A DNA stretch of 63,920 bases, filler included, from Aduncisulcus paluster (lineage: Eukaryota), in assembly GCA_024181965.1 (NCBI GenBank). It is 7 parts of 7 records of this genome, joined end to end, with 100 filler letters (N's around TTAATTAATTAA, not from the genome) between each part and the next. Parts side by side here need not be neighbours in the genome. Positions count along the whole stretch, not along the records: positions 46,355 to 54,945 come from BQXS01011542.1; 6 more parts are not named here. One strand, written 5' to 3'. Position 1 is the stretch's first letter. Each line of letters begins with the position of its first letter. A program made the translations under genes and the position numbers. Below are positions 42,895-55,045 of the stretch, piece after piece. The notes under the pieces are model-generated. The model saw nothing but the letters and a program-made list of their open reading frames with translations. It did not search any database and was not told the origin of the DNA.

Positions 42895-44328
42895 TTATCC
42901 CTTTTTGTTCTGACACATTGAAGGAAAAGGTTCCCAAACAAGTCTGGAAGGATCGAGAGTTTCTTCGCCTAACCATTTCTTTGCCTTTTCCGGCGGACAA
43001 TATATGACAGAATCTCCCCTTGGAAGGTCCTTTATGAGCTTTAAAGCAGCCAGGGTCTGATACACTTGATCAACCTGGATGTGCGTTACTTGGGAGATCT
43101 GTTGGATAGAAGCCTCTTTCTTGTCCTTCAAATATCGAATGATCTCTCGTTTCCAGTATGATAAGAACAGAACAAGCCCAAGATCAGACAAAGGTTCCTC
43201 GGGACCAGCGATTCTTCCCTCTTTCTTTGCCAACATATAGGACATGGCTACCAACTTTCGACCATAGCCACAACCTTGATAGCATGGCACTGTTGCAATA
43301 CAACTGAGGATATTCTCACTCTCTTTCTCTTTGCTGAAATAACCAACCATGTGATATCCATACTCATCTTTTCGGCACATAACATAGTATAAAAAGGCTT
43401 CAACTTCATAAAACAAAGCCTTGTCATCCAAGAAAAACTTTGCAAAGAGACATAAGTTCTGACAATATACCTTTTGCAACCTTCCATCGACTTCAANNNN
43501 NNNNNNNNNNNNNNNNGACATGGCTACCAACTTTCGACCATAGCCACAACCTTGATAGCATGGCACTGTTGCAATACAACTGAGGATATTCTCACTCTCT
43601 TTCTCTTTGCTGAAATAACCAACCATGTGATATCCATACTCATCTTTTCGGCACATAACATAGTATAAAAAGGCTTCAACTTCATAAAACAAAGCCTTGT
43701 CATCCAAGAAAAACTTTGCAAAGAGACATAAGTTCTGACAATATACCTTTTGCAACCTTCCATCGACTTCAAAACAGCTTACATTGGCATCCCGATATAT
43801 CTCATCTCCAGGTGGGTATCGAAGATCACATTTCGACCGATGCCGTTTGTAGCGAATGGGATCACTGAAATATGACAAACAAAACTCACAGATATAAAGT
43901 TTCTCACAGGCTCCATATTCATCGGGATAGGGAGACCAATACCACGTGGAGATTTCATACTTTCCAAACTCAACTTTGGCAATAGTTTTGGCTTTGATTT
44001 CAACATGTTCTTCGGTTCTGGGTGCTCGAAGACGCTTACTCGACCGTGTTTCATCAGATTTCGATACTTTCTGTGCCGGGCGGATTTCCCTTTCTGGAAT
44101 CCAGGAATCCCACCGTTTGTTCATTCCAATAAAATGAATATAGTATTCTATTACATCTTCGTGTATTCTACTTCCACAAATTTGAGCACGAGCTGAATAA
44201 AGGTATAAATGAGAAAATGATTAGAAAAATGATTCTATTCGCAATCTACATATAGTATAATGAAACATACCCCATTCACCATCAAATTCAACCTCAACTT
44301 TCGAGGCTGAATTATATTGAAATGTCAT
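42895..44328 (-). CDS. MYST-family histone acetyltransferase (Esa1/Tip60/MOF-like), about 359 aa; intron 44193-44270
   Basis: Tudor-knot (YYIHFIGMNKRWDSW) completed by exon 44271-44328 via GTATGT...CTAAT...CAG; WYWSPYP, C2HC finger (CEFCLSY), CQNLCLFAK, GYFSKEK, LSCI and PEEPLSDLG. 43241-43496 duplicates 43517-43772 across a 20-N gap. Confidence 0.95.
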
Positions 44329-46354: not shown

Positions 46355-46968
46355 GTGAAGTTCGGTGTATCATCGAGAGCAAGGGTTTCGTGAAGGGACA
46401 CCGCAGACACAGCAGAACTGAGAGCAGCAATAGATGGAATGAAGACAGTAGGTGCACTGGAGGAAGTCGAAGAGGTGACTACACAGTGTTGACAAACCAG
46501 CTGAGCTATAAAAGGCCTAATACTATATAGATGTCGCGAACACACAGCGAAGACTTTTTTAGGTCCCGACCTAGATCATACCGTGTTTGTCTCTTTTTTC
46601 GGTATGACCTAGGTAGGGACCATATGGTCATACATAGGTCATACTATAGGGTAGACCGGAGACGTCCGAAGATACAGTTTCAGTCGGAAAATTTGTGAAA
46701 AACCTATTTTTAGATCCCTCTGAGAAAAACCAAAGTCCGAAAAATTCTCTCTCACAACGTTCCAAAATCCCGAAATCCCATGAGTTCCGATTTTGCTACA
46801 AGATAAAATATGGAATTTAAATTTGCAATATTTTATTAAAATTACTTGAAGTTTTCAAAAAAATAAAATATAAAAATTCCGATCTTAACAGCTTCGTTGA
46901 AACGAATTGTGTTTGGGATTAACGAATTATAATAACGTATAATTGTTAATTATGTATTAATATTAAGC

Positions 46969-47096
46969 TGTTAGAAGGAATTTAAGGAATGGAGTCAACA
47001 TTATTGGTTGACGATGTGTCAACATACTATTCATTTGAAAGCTTTGACAAGAACCTTCAGAATAATAAATTTGAACTCGAGATTTATTGTATAACA
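46969..47096 (+). repeat. LTR-like unit (128 bp)
   Basis: TGTTA...TAACA termini, internal AATAAATTTG (47064), immediately upstream of gag-like ORF 47126. Confidence 0.45.
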
Positions 47097-47125
47097 GTAA
47101 TCAACAGTGAATTCACTGATTAATT

Positions 47126-47536
47126 ATGTTAAGAACAGATTTAGAACCACCCTTTCTTGTTACTATGTCGAAATCGAAATGGAAGGATTTCGTCGAGAAG
47201 TACAAAATTTATAAAGCGAAAGGTGGTAAACAGTTATGGGTCAGCTTGGTAAAACCTAAATTATTGGAAATACTGTTAACGTTATATTGTTTCGAAGACG
47301 AGAGGGATGATATTGTTCTAACTGAAGACGAGATGACGGATTCAGTGTGTTTTGCAAGTATTTATGATGGAAAGAAGATAGGCATTGAAAACGATGGGGC
47401 TGAGAAGTTATTACGGAAGGTTAATAAGGCGTATGCCCCCTCTTCAACTGTAGCGCTTTATGATGCATTGAAAATTTTAACGATGAAGACCCCAGTGACG
47501 ATGGAAACATTGTGCCGGCCTTGGCACATGACCTAA
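47126..47536 (+). pseudogene. Gag-like N-terminal fragment truncated by the LTR-like unit at 47511
   Basis: PPFL...WKDFVEKYKIYKAKGG motif shared with the other gag ORFs. Confidence 0.6.
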
Positions 47537-47608
47537 AAATAGATCGTGATTATCTTGTAATTAGTAAATTTGCTTCAGTTATATATTGTCTTTATTATTA
47601 CTGGCACA
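47511..47608 (+). repeat. LTR-like unit (98 bp), putative 5' LTR of the gag-protease element
   Basis: TGTGCC...GGCACA termini, internal AGTAAATTTG (47563), 18 nt upstream of the gag ATG at 47627. Confidence 0.6.
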
Positions 47609-47626
47609 TTTTGATCAAAATCACCT

Positions 47627-48842
47627 ATGGTACTACCATTAGTAATGGAGATTGATAATTTTACACCGCCGTTTTTATTGCATTTTGGAGCGTCCGAATT
47701 TCACAAATTCTCTGAACGTTTCGAGCAATATCGAGCCCGTGGAGGTGCAGCTCATCTGTTTACTATGATCGAGTTAGATGTTTTGCCCATTTATTGTGAT
47801 GCTACGGGTGCAGTTCTGACGAATCCAGATGAAGACGCATGCCGACAGATTCAGGATATTAGAACTGAGGAACGAACATTTATTAAGGATGTTCAACAAT
47901 TCTTTGGAACATTGTCTGGTTTAGATGCATTGTACGCATTCGAAGAGATTAAGCTTACGAAAATCTCTGTTAAGTCTGTCGCTGTATATGTTAAGGCGTT
48001 CAGAAAGACATTAAGAAGGGTCACGGAGGATGAACGTCCATCTGGCTTCACTTCTTAAGAAGTACTTCCTGCAGGGAATTGAAAACCTTTATTTCCGAAC
48101 ACGTTGCGAATCTGCTTTGGACTCAATCAGGGAAATCGACATTTCTGTACTCACGAAGATGATTTTTGCTCAACAAGCAATTGTTACTGAGGGAATTGAA
48201 GAATTCCAGCGTTATTGCTCTGTCCCCGCTAAAAGGCACTCGTCCTCTGCTGATCGACGCGACAAAACAGAAAAAAAGGAGAAAAGCTTCCATAAGAGAA
48301 CCGGTCCGCCTAAGGACTTATCTAAAATTCGCTGTTTTAATTGCCAAGCCATGGGACACTTTGCTAAGGATTGCCCTGTAAAACGTAAGGCTGAAAACAA
48401 AGGAAGGCAGAAGTTTAAAGCATTTAGTTCCTCAAACGAAGAGACTCAACGTCCGATCATTTCAGTACAGATCCTTGGAGATGGAACGACGGTTTTGAGT
48501 GAACAGATGCCCGCCTTGTTGGATTCCGGAGCGACTTGTTCCTTTATTGGGAAAGATAACCTCTTAGCTGAGCATTTTGTGCCTCAGAAGTTGGTGAAGA
48601 GCGAAATTGAGCTGGGTGATGGCAGGAAGATTCAGTCAACTCGTCAAGTGTCTCTTCGCCTGCGTATCCATCCAGTGACGACCTGTTCTGCGGTTATTAT
48701 CCGTCAAACTTTCACTGTCATTCCCATGCAGACGACTAGTGAGGAAATAATATTCGGTTATCCGGATATCCTCAAAAAGGGTCTCCTTGATATTATACAG
48801 CAGCCCCAGAAGAAGGAGGAGGTGCATGAACCTCTGATGTAA
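47627..48842 (+). mobile_element. Retrotransposon gag-aspartic protease gene with a +1 frameshift near 48040-48058
   Basis: Gag motif, CCHC knuckle CFNCQAMGHFAKDC and retropepsin LLDSGATCSF...IIFG; stop after the protease. Confidence 0.85.
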
Positions 48843-50523
48843 ACACGTTCCTGAGAGAGACATCGAGGGTTGTCTCAAATATGAGAGGATTTTTGGGCGT
48901 AGCTAACCCAGGGGAGGCGTAAGTCTTATTAATTTTATTTATCTTGCTCCCCTTGTCTCTTCCTTGCTTCCCCCGATGACCCTCCCCTGTATTTCTGTTT
49001 TCTTTGTAAAAAAAGGGGGGGTCCCCAACGATTTTTCTTTGTTTTTTGTTTGAAATAATTTAAGAAATTTATAAAGTAAATGTTTTAACTTAAGATTTAT
49101 TATAAAACTGATATTTTGGTATGACCTAGGTCAGGGTATGGTATAACCCCTGTATGACCAGGTGGTCAAATGTACTCTATAGGTTGGTATGACCTAGTGG
49201 TCCAGACCTAGGTCAGGACCATCGGTATGACCTAGGTCATACCTAAAAAAGTCATCGCTGTGTATTGCAGCACCATTCTTCCTGGTCCCGAAGAAGGGAA
49301 CAGACGAAAAAAGAGAGGTACACGACCTGAGAGCACTCAACAAGAGACTACCGAAACTTCCTTTCAAGTTAACAGCACTGGAGGAAGCCCTGTATGTGGG
49401 GGAGAGTCGACCATTCATGACGAAGTTGGACCTGAGAAAGGGTTACTGGCAAATACTCGGTCTGCCCAAGAGACAGAAAGCTATTGGGTACACACATTGG
49501 GAAAAGAACTATACAATCAAGGGTCCTACCTTTCGGCGCGATGGCCAAAAATATGTCAACCGAAAATTTGGAGGTTTGTGTTTGACATTGGTCTAGACCT
49601 ATTTTATTTTACTTTTCGTTGTGGTGGTTATCATCGCTGTATTATACAGCATAGTATGCTGATATCTTTTTGTAAATTCTTGATTTTCTTCCCGTTGAGC
49701 TGTTATTTAATGTCAGAACCGACTATATCCACCATTTATGAAGAATTGGAATAGGTTTTCTTCAGGGATGCCCATTTTGACTCGGGATCCAAAAAGACTA
49801 AAGGTAAGTGATTTAATTGTTTTNNNNNNNNNNNNNNNNNNNNGTACACACATTGGGAAAAGAACTATACAATCAAGGGTCCTACCTTTCGGCGCGATGG
49901 CCAAAAATATGTCAACCGAAAATTTGGATGTTTGTGTTTGACATTGGTCTAGACCTATTTTATTTTACTTTTCGTTGTGGTGGTTATCATCGCTGTATTA
50001 TACAGCATAGTATGCTGATATCTTTTTGTAAATTCTTGATTTTCTTCCCGTTGAGCTGTTATTTAATGTCAGAACCGACTATATCCACCATTTATGAAGA
50101 ATTGGAATAGGTTTTCTTCAGGGATGCCCATTTTGACTCGGGATCCAAAAAGACTAAAGGTAAGTGATTTAATTGTTTTATTAACTCTCTCCGAGAACGT
50201 ATTGCCTCAAAATTGAAAAAGTTGTCGGAATCATCGCTCTGAGATTCCTGATTGAGCTATTAAAGAAAGAATTTTCTGCTAGTTCAAAGAAGAAACCAAG
50301 AATCCTCTCTTTAGGGAAGAAAGAGGATATTATTAAAACAGAGATTCTCAAGAATGAAATGTTTGGCGAAATCTTCCACAGAGCCTCCGAGGGTAAAATT
50401 TTCCAATTCTATTCTTTTCACCTTAAATTCAAGGTCCAGGAAAAGTATAATAAGAAAACCTATTAGACTTTTTAGTGAAATTCCAATATTTAAGAGGCAA
50501 TTATTGATGAGGGAAATTTACTC

Positions 50524-50619
50524 TGTAATGGTTCTCAGTTCTATTTATAGAACCATTGGATGTTAATATTTCTAATAAACTTGCTTAGGTTATAAGTTTT
50601 TAAATCTATATCCGTTACA
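50524..50619 (+). mobile_element. Solo LTR (96 bp) with 4-bp target-site duplication ACTC
   Basis: ACTC|TGTAATGG...CCGTTACA|ACTC; internal AATAAACTTG (50574). Confidence 0.75.
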
Positions 50620-50845
50620 ACTCCTATGAAATTGAGTTCTATTGCCTGGAATCAAGCTGGGGTGAATTCATAAAAAAAAGATACCTTGCAAGAAGAACAT
50701 CCTGTTGAGTTTTTGGTTTCTTTTCAAAGTTAACCGAAATTGCTCAATATAGCTTCTCAGTTTCATCAAATCACTTGAACACACATACCCATGGCTTTCA
50801 ATCCCCATTCAACTCATCGACTGCTTCGAGTCTAAAGAACTTGTC

Positions 50846-51193
50846 TTAAGCGCTGAAACAATCATCTTGATCAAAATCATCAATTTCAGTATCAATATTC
50901 AGCTTAACAGCTTCGGAAATTCGAGAAAATACTAATGCTTTCCCTCTATCAGCTTGATACGACTTTAATTGTTTCTTAAAAATAAAATAAGATTCCTTAG
51001 TGAACTTTGTCCATCTTGGGGCGCTAAGGATTGATGTTTCAACCTTTCCAAAGGTTTCTTGTTTCTCCTTTGATAAAATGCTGGGTTGAGTAACATAAGT
51101 ATCCTTAGGTTGGTCCATTGTCAAGGAACTCGTAGTTAAATAGCTCGGATTAAATCTTCTTGCGTCGGTTTCCCGGAAATCGTAACGATCCAT
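50846..51193 (-). pseudogene. Gag-like N-terminal fragment
   Basis: APRWTKFTKESYFIFKKQLKSYQADRG; close paralogue of 54624-54945. Confidence 0.6.
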
Positions 51194-51439
51194 TCGTAAT
51201 CAATAAAATTTCAGAAATCAGTTATTAAATCAGTCAAAATATCTTTAATCAGATTGTAATAATGGAATCTACCATAACGGAATAATTTTTCTGTTATACT
51301 ACGCCAAAATTTACTAATCTGCCGTTAAATATTTTTTCAGCTGGTAACTTTCAAATTCGGTGACAAAGTCAATTGTGGCCTTCTTGTCGCAGCTTTTTAG
51401 TACTACTACCAATAGTATTGGTCGCTGGACTGAGCATGT

Positions 51440-51601
51440 TGTGATGGCTACCGGCACTAACCGGCATTACCGGTATGCAGCCGATTATTCTTTTATTAAT
51501 AAATTTGCTAGCCACTTGCATACCGCAAGTCAAATTTCCCGTTCTATGAATAAGCTAAGAATGGAGCACCGGCTTCGTTAGGAAACCGACTTTACATCAC
51601 A
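51440..51601 (+). repeat. LTR-like unit (162 bp)
   Basis: TGTGATG...CATCACA perfect 7-bp terminal inverted repeat, internal AATAAATTTG (51498), upstream of a gag-like ORF. Confidence 0.55.
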
Positions 51602-51689
51602 TCCTGATAACTTTTCTTTATTGGGAACAGACACATCGACTTCATCGACCAGTTTTTCCGATCAATTGACTGTTCAGAAGAATTCGATA

Positions 51690-52346
51690 ATGACTCTTAC
51701 CAAACTCGTGGAAGAGCAGCAGAAAGCCATGGACATAATGGCTAAAGCTATTCATAATCTCTCTGATAAGCTTGAAGGAAGAGAAAAGCTTGAAGGAAGA
51801 GAAAAACTTAAAGAATGTCCTCTTAAGAAAGTCTCGACTTCAGCTTCGATTATTGACAAAATTGTCCTAAATCCCACTGATACCCATAGTAGTGACTCTC
51901 CGTTTATTGTTAATCCCTTTCTAACCCTTTCCCAAAAGGATTACAAAGAAAATAGTAGTGCCGGGACTCGAACCCGCGCATTCCATCTCGATGGCGAAGA
52001 ACCTAACAGGGGGAAAATCCCAAAAACTGTCAAGATTGTAAGAAAAAGGACAACTCCTGGACTCTATGAAGCCAGGATACGAGATGATATTATCCCAAGA
52101 GTCGGCCAAGACATAGGCAAACCACCAATCCTTGAAATCCTCAGCGCGAAAGCATACGAGACGTTTGTTACTCAATACAAAGCTTACGGGAGCAAAGGTG
52201 GGATACGCCCTATATATGCATGTGTATCTGATAAAGTCGCCAGACTAATAATCTCATACTACCCTGATTCAGATGTCCCCCGAAGACCTCTCCAAAGTTG
52301 TCCAAAAATAACAAGATCAGATCACTTCTCTAATGGGTGGAATTGA
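51690..52346 (+). pseudogene. Gag-like ORF (truncated after the capsid-like motif)
   Basis: First ATG 51690; PPILEILSAKAYETFVTQYKAYGSKGG. Confidence 0.55.
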
Positions 52347-53682
52347 TAAACTAATGACGATGATGCAATCCATGATAACGCAGAATCATGATATTGTTAC
52401 TGAACAAGCGTTTATTAGAGAAGAACTCCTTCCTGCAAGGAGCAAGTCTGACCCGCCTCCGCTGCCGTTATCTCAACCACCGTCAAAGGCGGCGAAGAAA
52501 TCCCGTCTCAGAGCGGAGGATTTGGTTGAATTGAAAGCACAAGAATCCTTATTTAGCCCTGACCCGACGCCCCCAGCGTCCATTGCCCAATCTACCATCC
52601 ATCTGGTACCACCTATTCTGAAGGAGATGGATGTGAAGCAGTACACCCGGTTCATAGCCGATTATAAGGCTTATGTTATCAAGGGTGGGACAAAACCCAT
52701 AGAGCACTGCTTATCGTCCAATGTATGTCGATTAGTGAGATTCTATGCTCTCCCTGAAGAAAAGGACGAACCGGTTATGACGCTGTTGAGAAATCGTCTA
52801 GCCCCAGTAACAGCTGACGACTTATTCAATCGCCTTTCTCAAGTGGATTTTACATGGGACAACTCCCTTAAGTGTATTGACAAGTACAATTCATCGTTTA
52901 TCACGGTTGTGGATTCAGCCCCTGACATTGTTAAAGAAAGACCCACTACAATTGCAAAATTGTATGTAAAGAAAGTTTACGTCCGCAAATTGACCATTTC
53001 GTTGTATCGTCTGATAGATGATGGGACGACTGACCTTGCTACACTAGGTAGGGTTCTCAGAGACACAGCCGAAAGATTGTTGAGCGATGGGTGGACGCTA
53101 AGAGTCAAGAAACCTCAACCACGTAAGTCTGAGTTCGGTAGTGATTCTAAGAAGGACAAACCTGACTTCCCGGTCACTGATTCAAAAGGTGATCGACCCT
53201 CACGGTCTAGAAAAGGCTGTTCTCATTGTGGAATGAGTAATCATTCGATTGATCATTGTTTTAAGCTTCATCCAGAACTCCGCTATAACAAGATGTCTAC
53301 TGAACTGCATTCGAATGAGTTTCATATTCCAATTTCATTCCTGGGCTCTCAGTCTGGCTGTGATGCTTTAATAGACACGGGTTCTGAATGCAATGTAATC
53401 CATCCTGATTTCTTCAAATCCTGTGACCTTGGCCCCACTAAACCATGTGAGCACACAATTCGCTTTGGTAAAGATTCCAAAACAACAGCTGTTGAATGTA
53501 TAGAGCCTTTTATAGTATTTCAGTCATCTACAGAGAAGCAATGTATTGCCCCTATGCTTCTTCTGATTTCTGATGTTGCTGGGGATGATAAACTAATTAT
53601 ATCAGGTAATTGGGCCAGGAACCATGGATTACTTGATGTGATTGCACGCTCGGTGCTGAATGGGAGTTTCAAAACACTGTGA
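52333..53682 (+). CDS. Intact retrotransposon Gag-aspartic protease polyprotein (449 aa), no RT/RNaseH/integrase
   Basis: PPIL...FIADYKAYVIKGG, CCHC knuckle CSHCGMSNHSIDHC and retropepsin ALIDTGSECN...LIISG. Confidence 0.85.
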   Translation: MGGIDKLMTMMQSMITQNHDIVTEQAFIREELLPARSKSDPPPLPLSQPPSKAAKKSRLRAEDLVELKAQESLFSPDPTPPASIAQSTIHLVPPILKEMDVKQYTRFIADYKAYVIKGGTKPIEHCLSSNVCRLVRFYALPEEKDEPVMTLLRNRLAPVTADDLFNRLSQVDFTWDNSLKCIDKYNSSFITVVDSAPDIVKERPTTIAKLYVKKVYVRKLTISLYRLIDDGTTDLATLGRVLRDTAERLLSDGWTLRVKKPQPRKSEFGSDSKKDKPDFPVTDSKGDRPSRSRKGCSHCGMSNHSIDHCFKLHPELRYNKMSTELHSNEFHIPISFLGSQSGCDALIDTGSECNVIHPDFFKSCDLGPTKPCEHTIRFGKDSKTTAVECIEPFIVFQSSTEKQCIAPMLLLISDVAGDDKLIISGNWARNHGLLDVIARSVLNGSFKTL

Positions 53683-53726
53683 ACAAAAGAAAAGGTTTTA
53701 ACCAATCTGCTCAAAGAATCTTGGTT

Positions 53727-53809
53727 AAAGAGGGCGTTGTAATGGTTTAGAAATAATCAGTAAATTTGTCGACCCAACTTTTGTTGTTATATATTTTTAT
53801 TTGTTTACA
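53727..53809 (+). repeat. Polypurine tract plus 3' LTR-like unit (72 bp)
   Basis: AAAGAGGG(CGT), then TGTAA (53738)...TTACA (53809); internal AGTAAATTTG (53759); starts TGTAATGGTT like the solo LTR at 50524. Confidence 0.6.
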
Positions 53810-54623
53810 ATAGTATGTCGATTAAAAATGTAGGTGATGAGCTGAATGATTTAAGGGCAGCAAAGAAATGATATGAAGTATATAGATTAGAGGCATTTGG
53901 GCTCTCTAAGGTTAATCCGAAGAATGCTGTTCCTTCGGTGATTCATATTGTGGATAGTCATACGTCTTTGACTAGAGTACCGAATTATTACTAATAATAA
54001 TCTAGTAGATTCGAGAGGTTCCATATTATCCTTTTTGTGGCTTTAAGGGTCATTTAGAATATGATTGTAAAATTAAAGCAAGGATGAGCCGAGAGGTAAA
54101 ATATACGTGAAAAGGGAGAAGGAAGTTTAAATGCGGCAAGAGCTCTTCAAGAAACGATAAGAAGCAAGGTTTCCAACATCACAAGCAAACCAGTCAATTC
54201 TGGAAATAATGAAACTTCGACCAATACAAAGATAAGATGGTTTTCAATGCTAGAGCAATATATGGAAATATGTAAGAATTTGGGAAAACTTGCACGACTG
54301 GTTGTTTAGTCCAATATAATGGAATAGCCCACAAGGGTCTTCTTTCTTTCTTATTATTTAGAATAAAATGTAGCACTTTGTGAAGAAGACTTTGGTGGGG
54401 CTGATATGGATGATGATCAAGGATATTTGTGTCATGTTCCATCATCTGAAGATGATATGGCTATTATTGTCCCGCACGAGCTCTCTGATGTTATGGATTA
54501 GTAAATTTTGGCGTAGTATAACAGAAAAATTTTTCCGTTACGGTAAATTCCGTCAATTACAACCCGATAGTGATATTATTTATTGATTTGATAAGTGATT
54601 TTTTTTGATATTATTGATTACAA

Positions 54624-54945
54624 ATGGATCCAACGAGTCGTTACGATTTCCGCGATACTGATGCCAGACGATTCAATCCAAGTTATTTGACTACAAGTTC
54701 TTTAACGATGGACACTTATATTACCCAACCAAGCAAGTTATTAGAAGAGGAACATGAAACCTTTGGGAAGGTCGAAACATCGATTCTCAGAGCCCCAAGA
54801 TGGACAGAATTCACGAAGGAATCTTATTTCGCTTTTAAAAGACAATTTGAATCGTATCAAGCTGATGGAGGAAAGGCTTTAGCATTTTCTCGCATTTCTG
54901 AAGCTGTTAAGCTCAATATTGATACCGAAGTGGACGATTTTGATA
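54624..54945 (+). CDS. Gag-like ORF, 3' truncated by contig end
   Basis: APRWTEFTKESYFAFKRQFESYQADGG; inverted paralogue of 50846-51193. Confidence 0.6.
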
Positions 54946-55045
54946 NNNNNNNNNNNNNNNNNNNNNNNNNNNNNNNNNNNNNNNNNNNNTTAATTAATTA
55001 ANNNNNNNNNNNNNNNNNNNNNNNNNNNNNNNNNNNNNNNNNNNN
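54946..55045. other. Artificial contig linker
   Basis: N44-TTAATTAATTAA-N44. Confidence 0.98.

Follow-up and report, generated by a model that had tools for sequence, protein, structure and literature searches.

Can a DNA transposon carry the genes of a retroelement as its own cargo? The question is raised by a locus of Aduncisulcus paluster, a free-living fornicate, in which gag and protease genes lie between the two ends of a DNA transposon that itself splits a reverse transcriptase (RT). The window studied here is a 63,920-nucleotide stretch of this genome, of which positions 46355–54945 are contig C11542 (G000:C11542) of an assembly of 29.6 Mb in 23,235 contigs. An earlier note on this DNA had proposed either a Pack-type family that co-mobilizes gag and protease or a nest of four layers. 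Our analysis leans towards a one-off nest of five transposon layers that was built up in place and partly deleted, with gag and protease as passengers.

Boundaries and layers of the element

The DNA transposon is 2,781 bp long, from 46482 (CACAG) to 49262 (CTGTG), and splits the RT at a TA that stands at each side of it (46480–46481 and 49263–49264). The corresponding empty site was found in contig C10187, where the RT is uninterrupted, a single TA is present and the downstream neighbor is the same; 1127 of 1131 bases are identical to the flanks of the element. A second record of the empty site is a contig from the public run X1 that fuses 46479 to 49263 (depth 1300). The octamer GTATGACC occurs in five forward and three reverse copies within the element and in none in the remainder of the window, and a perfect 20-bp palindrome is located at 49224–49243. 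Neither a transposase match (tblastn) nor a second copy of a long terminal repeat (LTR; self-BLAST) was detected within 46482–49262. On all these points the earlier note was right: it had placed the boundaries at TA/CACAG...CTGTG/TA, had argued that excision leaving a single TA restores the RT (which the natural empty copy in C10187 and the X1 joint both display), and had reported eight subterminal repeats in both orientations, the palindrome, the lack of an internal transposase and the lack of matching 3' LTRs inside.

What it overlooked is that a 56-bp solo LTR, with CACAG duplicated beside it, precedes the true left terminal inverted repeat (TIR), which is 41 bp in length and begins at 46543. 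An outer left boundary at 46543 was rejected in favor of 46482, the position with which both the empty site and the TA duplication agree. A reading of CACAGTG at 46482 as a Transib end or recombination signal sequence was also discarded; it is a chance product of the tip plus the TG of the solo LTR. For the 252-bp spacer (46658–46909), an origin as a known repeat or as a relic of a transposase was likewise rejected, as nothing outside this locus matched it. The features of the locus, including both copies of the target site duplication (TSD), are as follows.

46355–46481, plus strand: 5' part of the host RT, a decayed DIRS-like fragment with overlapping frames, ending in the left TA; uninterrupted in C10187
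46480–46481, no strand: left TSD copy (TA), from the empty site and TSD comparison
46482–46486, no strand: outer tip of the DNA transposon (CACAG), which doubles as the left copy of the 5-bp duplication of the solo LTR
46487–46542, plus strand: solo LTR with 56 of its 63 bp, inserted in the left TIR tip and belonging to a TRIM-like mini LTR retrotransposon that spans 248 bp and is non-coding
46543–46657, minus strand: left arm of the CMCT-clade element, with the 41-bp TIR (46543–46583) and subterminal repeats, stopping abruptly at 46657
46658–46909, no strand: spacer of 252 bp, single copy, matching the same locus only (C4524); X1 depth 1214
46910–47106, plus strand: 5' LTR of element A, 197 bp, TGTT..AACA, with the same boundaries in C526, C12386, C11506 and C9988 (88–91% identity)
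47107–47116, plus strand: palindrome GTGAATTCAC where the primer site of element A would lie, also present after the C526 LTR
47120–47510, plus strand: 5' portion of gag A, up to the insertion of element B; 94% nucleotide identity to C526 and C5581, E = 1.5e-10 to an intact gag-pol
47511–47608, plus strand: 5' LTR of element B, 98 bp, TGTGCC..GGCACA, with the same start and end in C12564 at 72% identity
47609–47620, plus strand: palindrome TTTTGATCAAAA where the primer site of element B would lie
47627–48842, plus strand: gag-protease B, with a CCHC zinc knuckle (48330–48377), a protease DSG motif (about 48522) and a stop at 48840–48842
48893–49262, minus strand: right arm of the CMCT-clade element, with conserved G+C boxes, subterminal repeats, the palindrome at 49224–49243 and the TIR up to CTGTG
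49263–49264, no strand: right TSD copy (TA), from the empty site and TSD comparison
49265–49484, plus strand: 3' part of the host RT, a DIRS-like fragment 99.5% identical to C10187; RVT_1 E = 0.048

The host RT fragment is 48% identical to the RT of C12412, compared with 27–39% to Gypsy RTs. With this RT family it shares 47–48% identity, and the family member C12441, a relative and not the host copy, has an RT-RNase H open reading frame (ORF) overlapped by a tyrosine recombinase ORF (Phage_integrase, E = 7e-7); the host copy is truncated. An overlapping ORF of this type in its closest family makes the host RT a fragment of a DIRS-like retrotransposon. The earlier note had recognized the interrupted RT and missed its DIRS-like nature.

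The cargo belongs to two further retrotransposons, A and B. A solo LTR of family A with a 5-bp TSD was detected in C11506, and C5581 is uninterrupted across the point at which B entered gag A, which provides an empty site for B. The gag-protease B protein matched the Pfam profiles zf-CCHC (1.4e-7) and RVP (0.0046); it stops at 48840–48842, whereas its relatives continue into RT, and the sequence switches from B to the right arm at 48893–48896. A frame break in gag B near 48043–48051 differs from three of the four relatives tested, and identical letters stand in a 1326-bp X1 contig. A second break behind the B protease, suspected by eye, was not established by tblastn, and only the stop is shown. 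Both copies end before pol and have no RT, integrase or 3' LTR; gag A is truncated and gag B frameshifted.

Both gags are members of large endogenous families (104 and 65 genome matches). Among four relatives scanned (24–41% identity), two encode protease, RT, RNase H, integrase and chromodomain in a single ORF and the other two end at contig ends; none of the four had an env match in Pfam, and the two complete ORFs finish in the chromodomain. Since intact family members have this gene order, A and B are probably Ty3/Gypsy chromoviruses rather than retroviruses. The label "retroviral" given to the gag and protease in the earlier note is therefore probably incorrect; its gag A and gag-protease B layers are real, and the two 5' LTRs (46910–47106 and 47511–47608) and the gag B frameshift had escaped it. 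Two side observations concern these elements. The LTR of A is an apparent mosaic, the first half matching the C526 type (94/99) and the second half C9988 (97/99). In addition, a perfect palindrome occupies the expected position of the tRNA primer site, immediately 3' of the 5' LTR, in both A and B.

The solo LTR of the left tip belongs to a family with 13 matches in 11 contigs, which share common boundaries. Copies with two LTRs are present in C9037 and C8665, and solo copies with a 5-bp TSD in C12726 and C11952; the copy at 46487–46542 is 7 bp short and has its own duplication, CACAG. Considering that the TA fits the outer tip at 46482, the solo LTR probably postdates the last transposition of the element. 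The C9037 copy (L031:74–321) is 248 bp long and has identical 63-bp LTRs and a 5-bp TSD. Its interior, of 122 bp, includes a stretch resembling a tRNA arm; no tRNA gene was predicted in two such loci by ARAGORN. The bin of this LTR is the deepest one in run X1.

Nesting in place or enclosure before a single hop

The earlier note had suggested a genome-wide search with the ends of the element, in which several loci with the same cargo at different TA sites would support co-mobilization. A terminal-pattern search of the contigs yielded 12 matches in 10 contigs (none in the reversed control). Three of the ten (C11542, C4524 and C12412) were counted as one locus, because C4524 and C12412 share the RT flank and the solo LTR with C11542. 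Gag cargo is absent from the other seven, none of which is among the 13 cargo-matching contigs; five of the seven show one end only and thus expose just a part of their interior.

Read depth in X1 points in the same direction: 1205–1340 on the cargo contigs, 1300 at the empty joint, approximately 2500–2700 on the shared flanks and approximately 11,000–32,000 on the right arm. On the right arm, the depth suggests some nine or more copies. Such depths should not be taken as copy numbers, and the assembly may itself derive from the X1 sample. Their pattern agrees with the assembly, in which the locus is present once filled and once empty (as alleles or very recent duplicates), the ends occur many times and the cargo once. 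Another run, X2, covers 8 of 30 bins and is uninformative on expression.

Thus, the headline of the earlier note does not stand in its multi-copy form. A true class I/class II hybrid family that co-mobilizes gag-protease, and possibly uses these genes, would explain the intact ends and TSD, the restriction of coding content to gag and protease, and a left junction common to three contigs. However, those three contigs are the one locus described above, the cargo has single-copy depth and recurs in none of the seven other contigs, and gag A is truncated and gag B frameshifted. Such a family is refuted for the A. paluster genome by copy number, and we consider it extremely improbable.

The structure might also be an artifact, in which repeats of several families were wrongly joined in a fragmented short-read assembly. 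In addition to the number of contigs, it is in favor of this view that no single X1 piece spans the whole element, that three of the four inner junctions are backed by 29–30 letters on the repeat side, under the 31-letter rule, and that X1 may be the source sample of the assembly. On the other hand, separate X1 contigs of similar depth show no differences across 46628–46938, 47445–47624 and 47596–48921, and matching TSDs at both sides together with a natural empty site would have to be a coincidence. Even with the short junction cover and the missing spanning piece, misassembly is unlikely.

We now turn to the origin of the nest, whose preferred reading is as follows. A non-autonomous CMCT-clade element would have inserted into the decayed DIRS-like RT and duplicated TA, an event documented by the empty copy, the TSD and the partner elements; mobilization was presumably in trans, by two-ORF autonomous elements. 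Gypsy element A would then have entered the CMCT element, as its LTR indicates, and element B would have entered gag A, for which C5581 provides the empty site. A subsequent deletion may have fused B to the right arm, at the cost of the 3' portions of both Gypsy elements and of the transposon interior next to them; the junction itself is visible in the sequence. A separate break would have trimmed the left arm at 46657, where a junction is likewise visible. Finally, the mini LTR retrotransposon would have inserted into the left tip, leaving its TSD, and been reduced to a solo LTR. The nest option of the earlier note thus survives with five layers instead of four, the fifth being this solo LTR.

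Several observations support nesting in place. The cargo is absent from the seven other end-bearing contigs, and its depth is 1205–1340 against that of the right arm; every inner layer starts exactly at the TG-started LTR of an independently living family; and a cargo-free 828-bp sister with both ends exists in C11579. Structural events are also frequent at this locus, since its two copies differ by a 162-bp indel and by a break 418 bp leftward, beside only 4 substitutions in 1131 bp. In a weak test of age, gag A differs from its sister at seven amino acids, at which outgroups side with the window copy in four (two of them on a single outgroup) and with the sister in one, two being unresolved. 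These polarized changes give no sign of long decay, and gag A shows no greater degradation than the sister copy.

Other observations weigh against this reading. The insertion is young, as the flanks differ at 4 of 1131 bp and the right end at 1 of 221; nevertheless, gag B is already frame-broken, and about eight events would have to fit into the short time since insertion. A source copy is missing in the genome for both B (best DNA match 65–72%) and A (best 94%). Moreover, the 252-bp spacer is found in no sister element, and the left junction requires a separate event.

These difficulties lead to an alternative that is less probable, yet one we take seriously: the nest was enclosed elsewhere and then moved by one cut-and-paste hop. 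Either an older A/B nest was taken up, along with 252 bp of its flank, between young ends, or the nest grew in an older copy, with the solo LTR arriving afterwards. Enclosure could have come about through gap repair and a template switch or, following the proposal for Pack-CACTA, through two neighboring copies that each lost the inner end. A single step would account for the TSD-less junctions (46657 and 48893–48896), the unique spacer, the missing A and B sources and the frame break in B beside young flanks. Both ends are intact, intact transposase ORFs are present in the genome, and private changes are few (1–3 in 115 bp of the left arm, 1 in 221 of the right). In addition, C12543 and C11344 each have the same right end fused to a piece of a leucine-rich repeat (LRR) gene, and their outer flanks differ. 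The mechanism is described in PMC6379663, and a maize macrotransposon that moved nested retrotransposons in PMC3260210. Single-copy depth is expected as well, because cut-and-paste transposition leaves no second copy.

Nevertheless, neither a donor site nor a donor copy was found in the genome, gag A lacks excess decay, and the missing sources may also result from segregation or loss. In-place nesting is, in general, a commoner event than capture.

In its broader form, this tentative alternative holds that a divergent, currently active CMCT lineage acts as a Pack-type shuttle whose ends enclosed an older Gypsy gag-protease nest and made one hop to a new site, and whose same end is fused to LRR sequence elsewhere. 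If true, capture in the manner of Pack-CACTA, described in plants, would also extend to Metamonada, and a DNA transposase would be shown to relocate genes of retrotransposons. Even if the composite hopped, its single copy and broken genes make it no functional class I/class II hybrid. Under the preferred reading, nesting at this site, the nest itself is of minor import, as such piles are common in repeat-rich genomes. The value of the locus lies in how well it resolves five mobile families of a lineage that has been little studied. It also led to intact autonomous elements with a divergent RAG1-fold transposase and to a very small TRIM, and the main interest lies there and not in the hybrid idea.

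Autonomous partners and flanking DNA

The left arm is 91% identical to C11579, 84% to C12405 and 79% to C139, and the right arm is 97.8% identical to C11579 over 370 bp, its last 221 bp having one difference from C12543 and C11344. The C11579 copy is complete at 828 bp, non-coding and cargo-free, with an AT duplication. C10977 contains a 4,235-bp element (L061:582–4816), intact-looking, with a TT/AA duplication and ORFs of 219 and 927 amino acids; the same two ORFs are present in C10948 (L060). CACAG..CTGTG termini are shared by the element at 46482–49262, C11579 and C10977, the three elements with both ends on one contig, and all three have a 2-bp TSD (TA, AT and TT/AA). In C10948 and C10977 the right-arm sequence lies upstream of ORF1 and the transposase, whereas in C139 the C-terminus of the same transposase family, with its stop codon, is followed, after 183 bp, by an end nearly identical to the element TIR. 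These positions indicate that the right arm is the promoter-side end and the left arm the 3' end of autonomous copies.

A block on the promoter side, in which C-rich and G-rich boxes are paired, is conserved among many subfamilies of autonomous elements. The right ends in C12543 (L010:1–1077) and C11344 (L011) are joined to a 5' piece of an LRR gene family and differ in their outer flanks; this arrangement hints at a family that may carry foreign DNA, adjacent deletion being an alternative explanation. In C12405 (L066:4500–5255), the left end of the family is joined to what appears by eye to be the start of a Tc1/IS630-type transposase gene, which would be a further chimera between ends of this family and foreign DNA.

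The earlier note had assigned the element to the CMC type from its ends and had looked to an autonomous partner for classification. Both points are borne out by these 4.2-kb two-ORF elements, which have 2-bp TSDs and whose DDE transposase, of the CMCT clade, combines a RAG1 fold with the C(2)C and H(3)H motifs. The partner transposase had 54 genome matches (49 of 133 candidates scored). In C10977 the motif order is FMDG (408), IIGD (494), CPWC (514), KTHLLLH (760) and GER (near 786), which is kept in paralogues and corresponds to the expected D, D, C(2)C, H(3)H and E; the catalytic roles are putative, being assigned by position. The DDE, C(2)C and H(3–4)H set is therefore found in the partner and not in the element at 46482–49262 itself.

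Structure prediction gave a fold with a pLDDT of 75.6. The best Foldseek match was RAG1 (E = 2.3e-6), and the matches listed among the 43 with E ≤ 0.001 were without exception RAG or RAG-like. VIA-align ranked RAG1 first (Z 13.5, root-mean-square deviation 4.5, 349 residues aligned), followed by BbRAGL (12.5), the P element (11.3) and Transib (10.5). At cut-off, no Pfam family matched the partner transposases or the 219-amino-acid ORF1, and no TnpD/Transposase_21-type match was found in two partners and 23 homologs, where divergence may hide one. Two of the 23 homologs had sub-threshold matches to the Plavaka profile PF18759 (E 6.7e-4 and 0.049), and Atlas gave Plavaka and RAG1 as a lead (0.92, recognition slightly under threshold). 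A phmmer search of 1.84 billion representative proteins returned 23 hits, of which the 13 checked for source are all from A. paluster, and a word-indexed protein search returned only three proteins, all from A. paluster.

As described in the sections of PMC12730594 consulted, the CMCT clade comprises EnSpm/CACTA, Mirage, Chapaev, Transib, Plavaka and ESTA, as well as Lanisha, and is characterized by a DDE transposase with C(2)C and H(3–4)H motifs, CA..TG ends and TSDs of 2–5 bp. The A. paluster family has the CA..TG termini, the 2-bp TSD and, in the partner, the motif set. It belongs to this clade via its partner transposase, as kin of EnSpm/Plavaka. By these descriptions only, CACARC ends with a variable 2-bp TSD match none of the sub-lineages: fungal EnSpm has a 3-bp TSD; PlavakaA and PlavakaB have TGT..ACA and CATCA..TGATG ends, unlike CACARC; and ESTA uses TA alone, whereas TA, AT and AA occur here. 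The 219-amino-acid ORF of no Pfam family before the transposase is a further difference. The framing DNA transposon belongs to a very divergent branch of a known group, without a clear relative outside the A. paluster genome among the 13 of 23 phmmer hits checked, and its partner transposase is a candidate new branch for the CMCT/RAG1 phylogeny.

Beyond the element, the RT fragment stops after 220 bp and is followed by CACA-type ends and a broken homolog of CMCT ORF1 on the plus strand (49485–50705); within this region the empty copy is longer by 162 bp, between short direct repeats. An exact 300-bp duplicate (49488–49787 and 49844–50143) surrounds an N gap and, since it occurs once in C10187, probably reflects an overlap left by scaffolding. 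A comparable duplicate flanks the gap in an ORF at 42895–44220, which from its motifs we take to be a MYST-type acetyltransferase. More Gypsy debris is present at 50846–55001, with related gag-like ORFs on the minus strand (50846–51199 and 54618–55001) and a second gag-protease on the plus strand (52312–53682).

Comparison with known systems

Elements A and B resemble Ty3/Gypsy chromoviruses (Metaviridae) in their TG..CA LTRs, gag-protease and 5-bp TSD (the latter shown for the family A solo LTR). They differ in their short LTRs (98 and 197 bp), the palindrome at the primer-site position and the truncation of both copies. The mini LTR retrotransposon is non-coding with two short LTRs and a 5-bp TSD, as are TRIM/SMART elements; at 248 bp with 63-bp LTRs it is smaller than the 292-bp SMART, which a 2012 paper gives as the smallest known at that time (PMC3281118). 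In an open-access library, we found no paper on transposable elements of Aduncisulcus and none on a non-autonomous TIR DNA transposon carrying a retrotransposon fragment.

Pack-CACTA elements, for which PMC6379663 and PMC13317346 describe a capture model, are similar in having CACTA-like ends around foreign DNA and breakpoints in both subterminal regions. According to these papers, Pack-CACTA1a carries host gene fragments and amplifies, whereas the A. paluster element is single copy and contains transposon debris for which no donor was found. Like Pack-TYPE elements, it is non-autonomous, with intact TIRs and TSD and no transposase. Unlike them, it shows no recurrence of the cargo at several insertion sites (0/7 contigs, single-copy depth). 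With regard to cargo origin, A and B begin at their own LTRs, and the age test of gag A is neutral.

The Ds and Ds-like elements of maize that contain filler DNA or inserted LTR retrotransposons offer another comparison. Ds is a hAT element with an 8-bp TSD. The A. paluster element differs from Ds in its two 5' halves, one nested in the other and neither with a 3' LTR, and in the solo LTR that occupies the tip of its TIR. What the two share is a non-autonomous TIR element whose interior has been replaced or enlarged by an LTR retrotransposon while the ends and TSD stay intact; according to PMC3260210, it is common for LTR retrotransposons to lie within Ds elements, and a Ds/Ac macrotransposon took nested retrotransposons along when it moved. 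The A. paluster element is not demonstrably a Pack-TYPE transposon and behaves as a stuffed non-autonomous copy of the kind seen in maize Ds.

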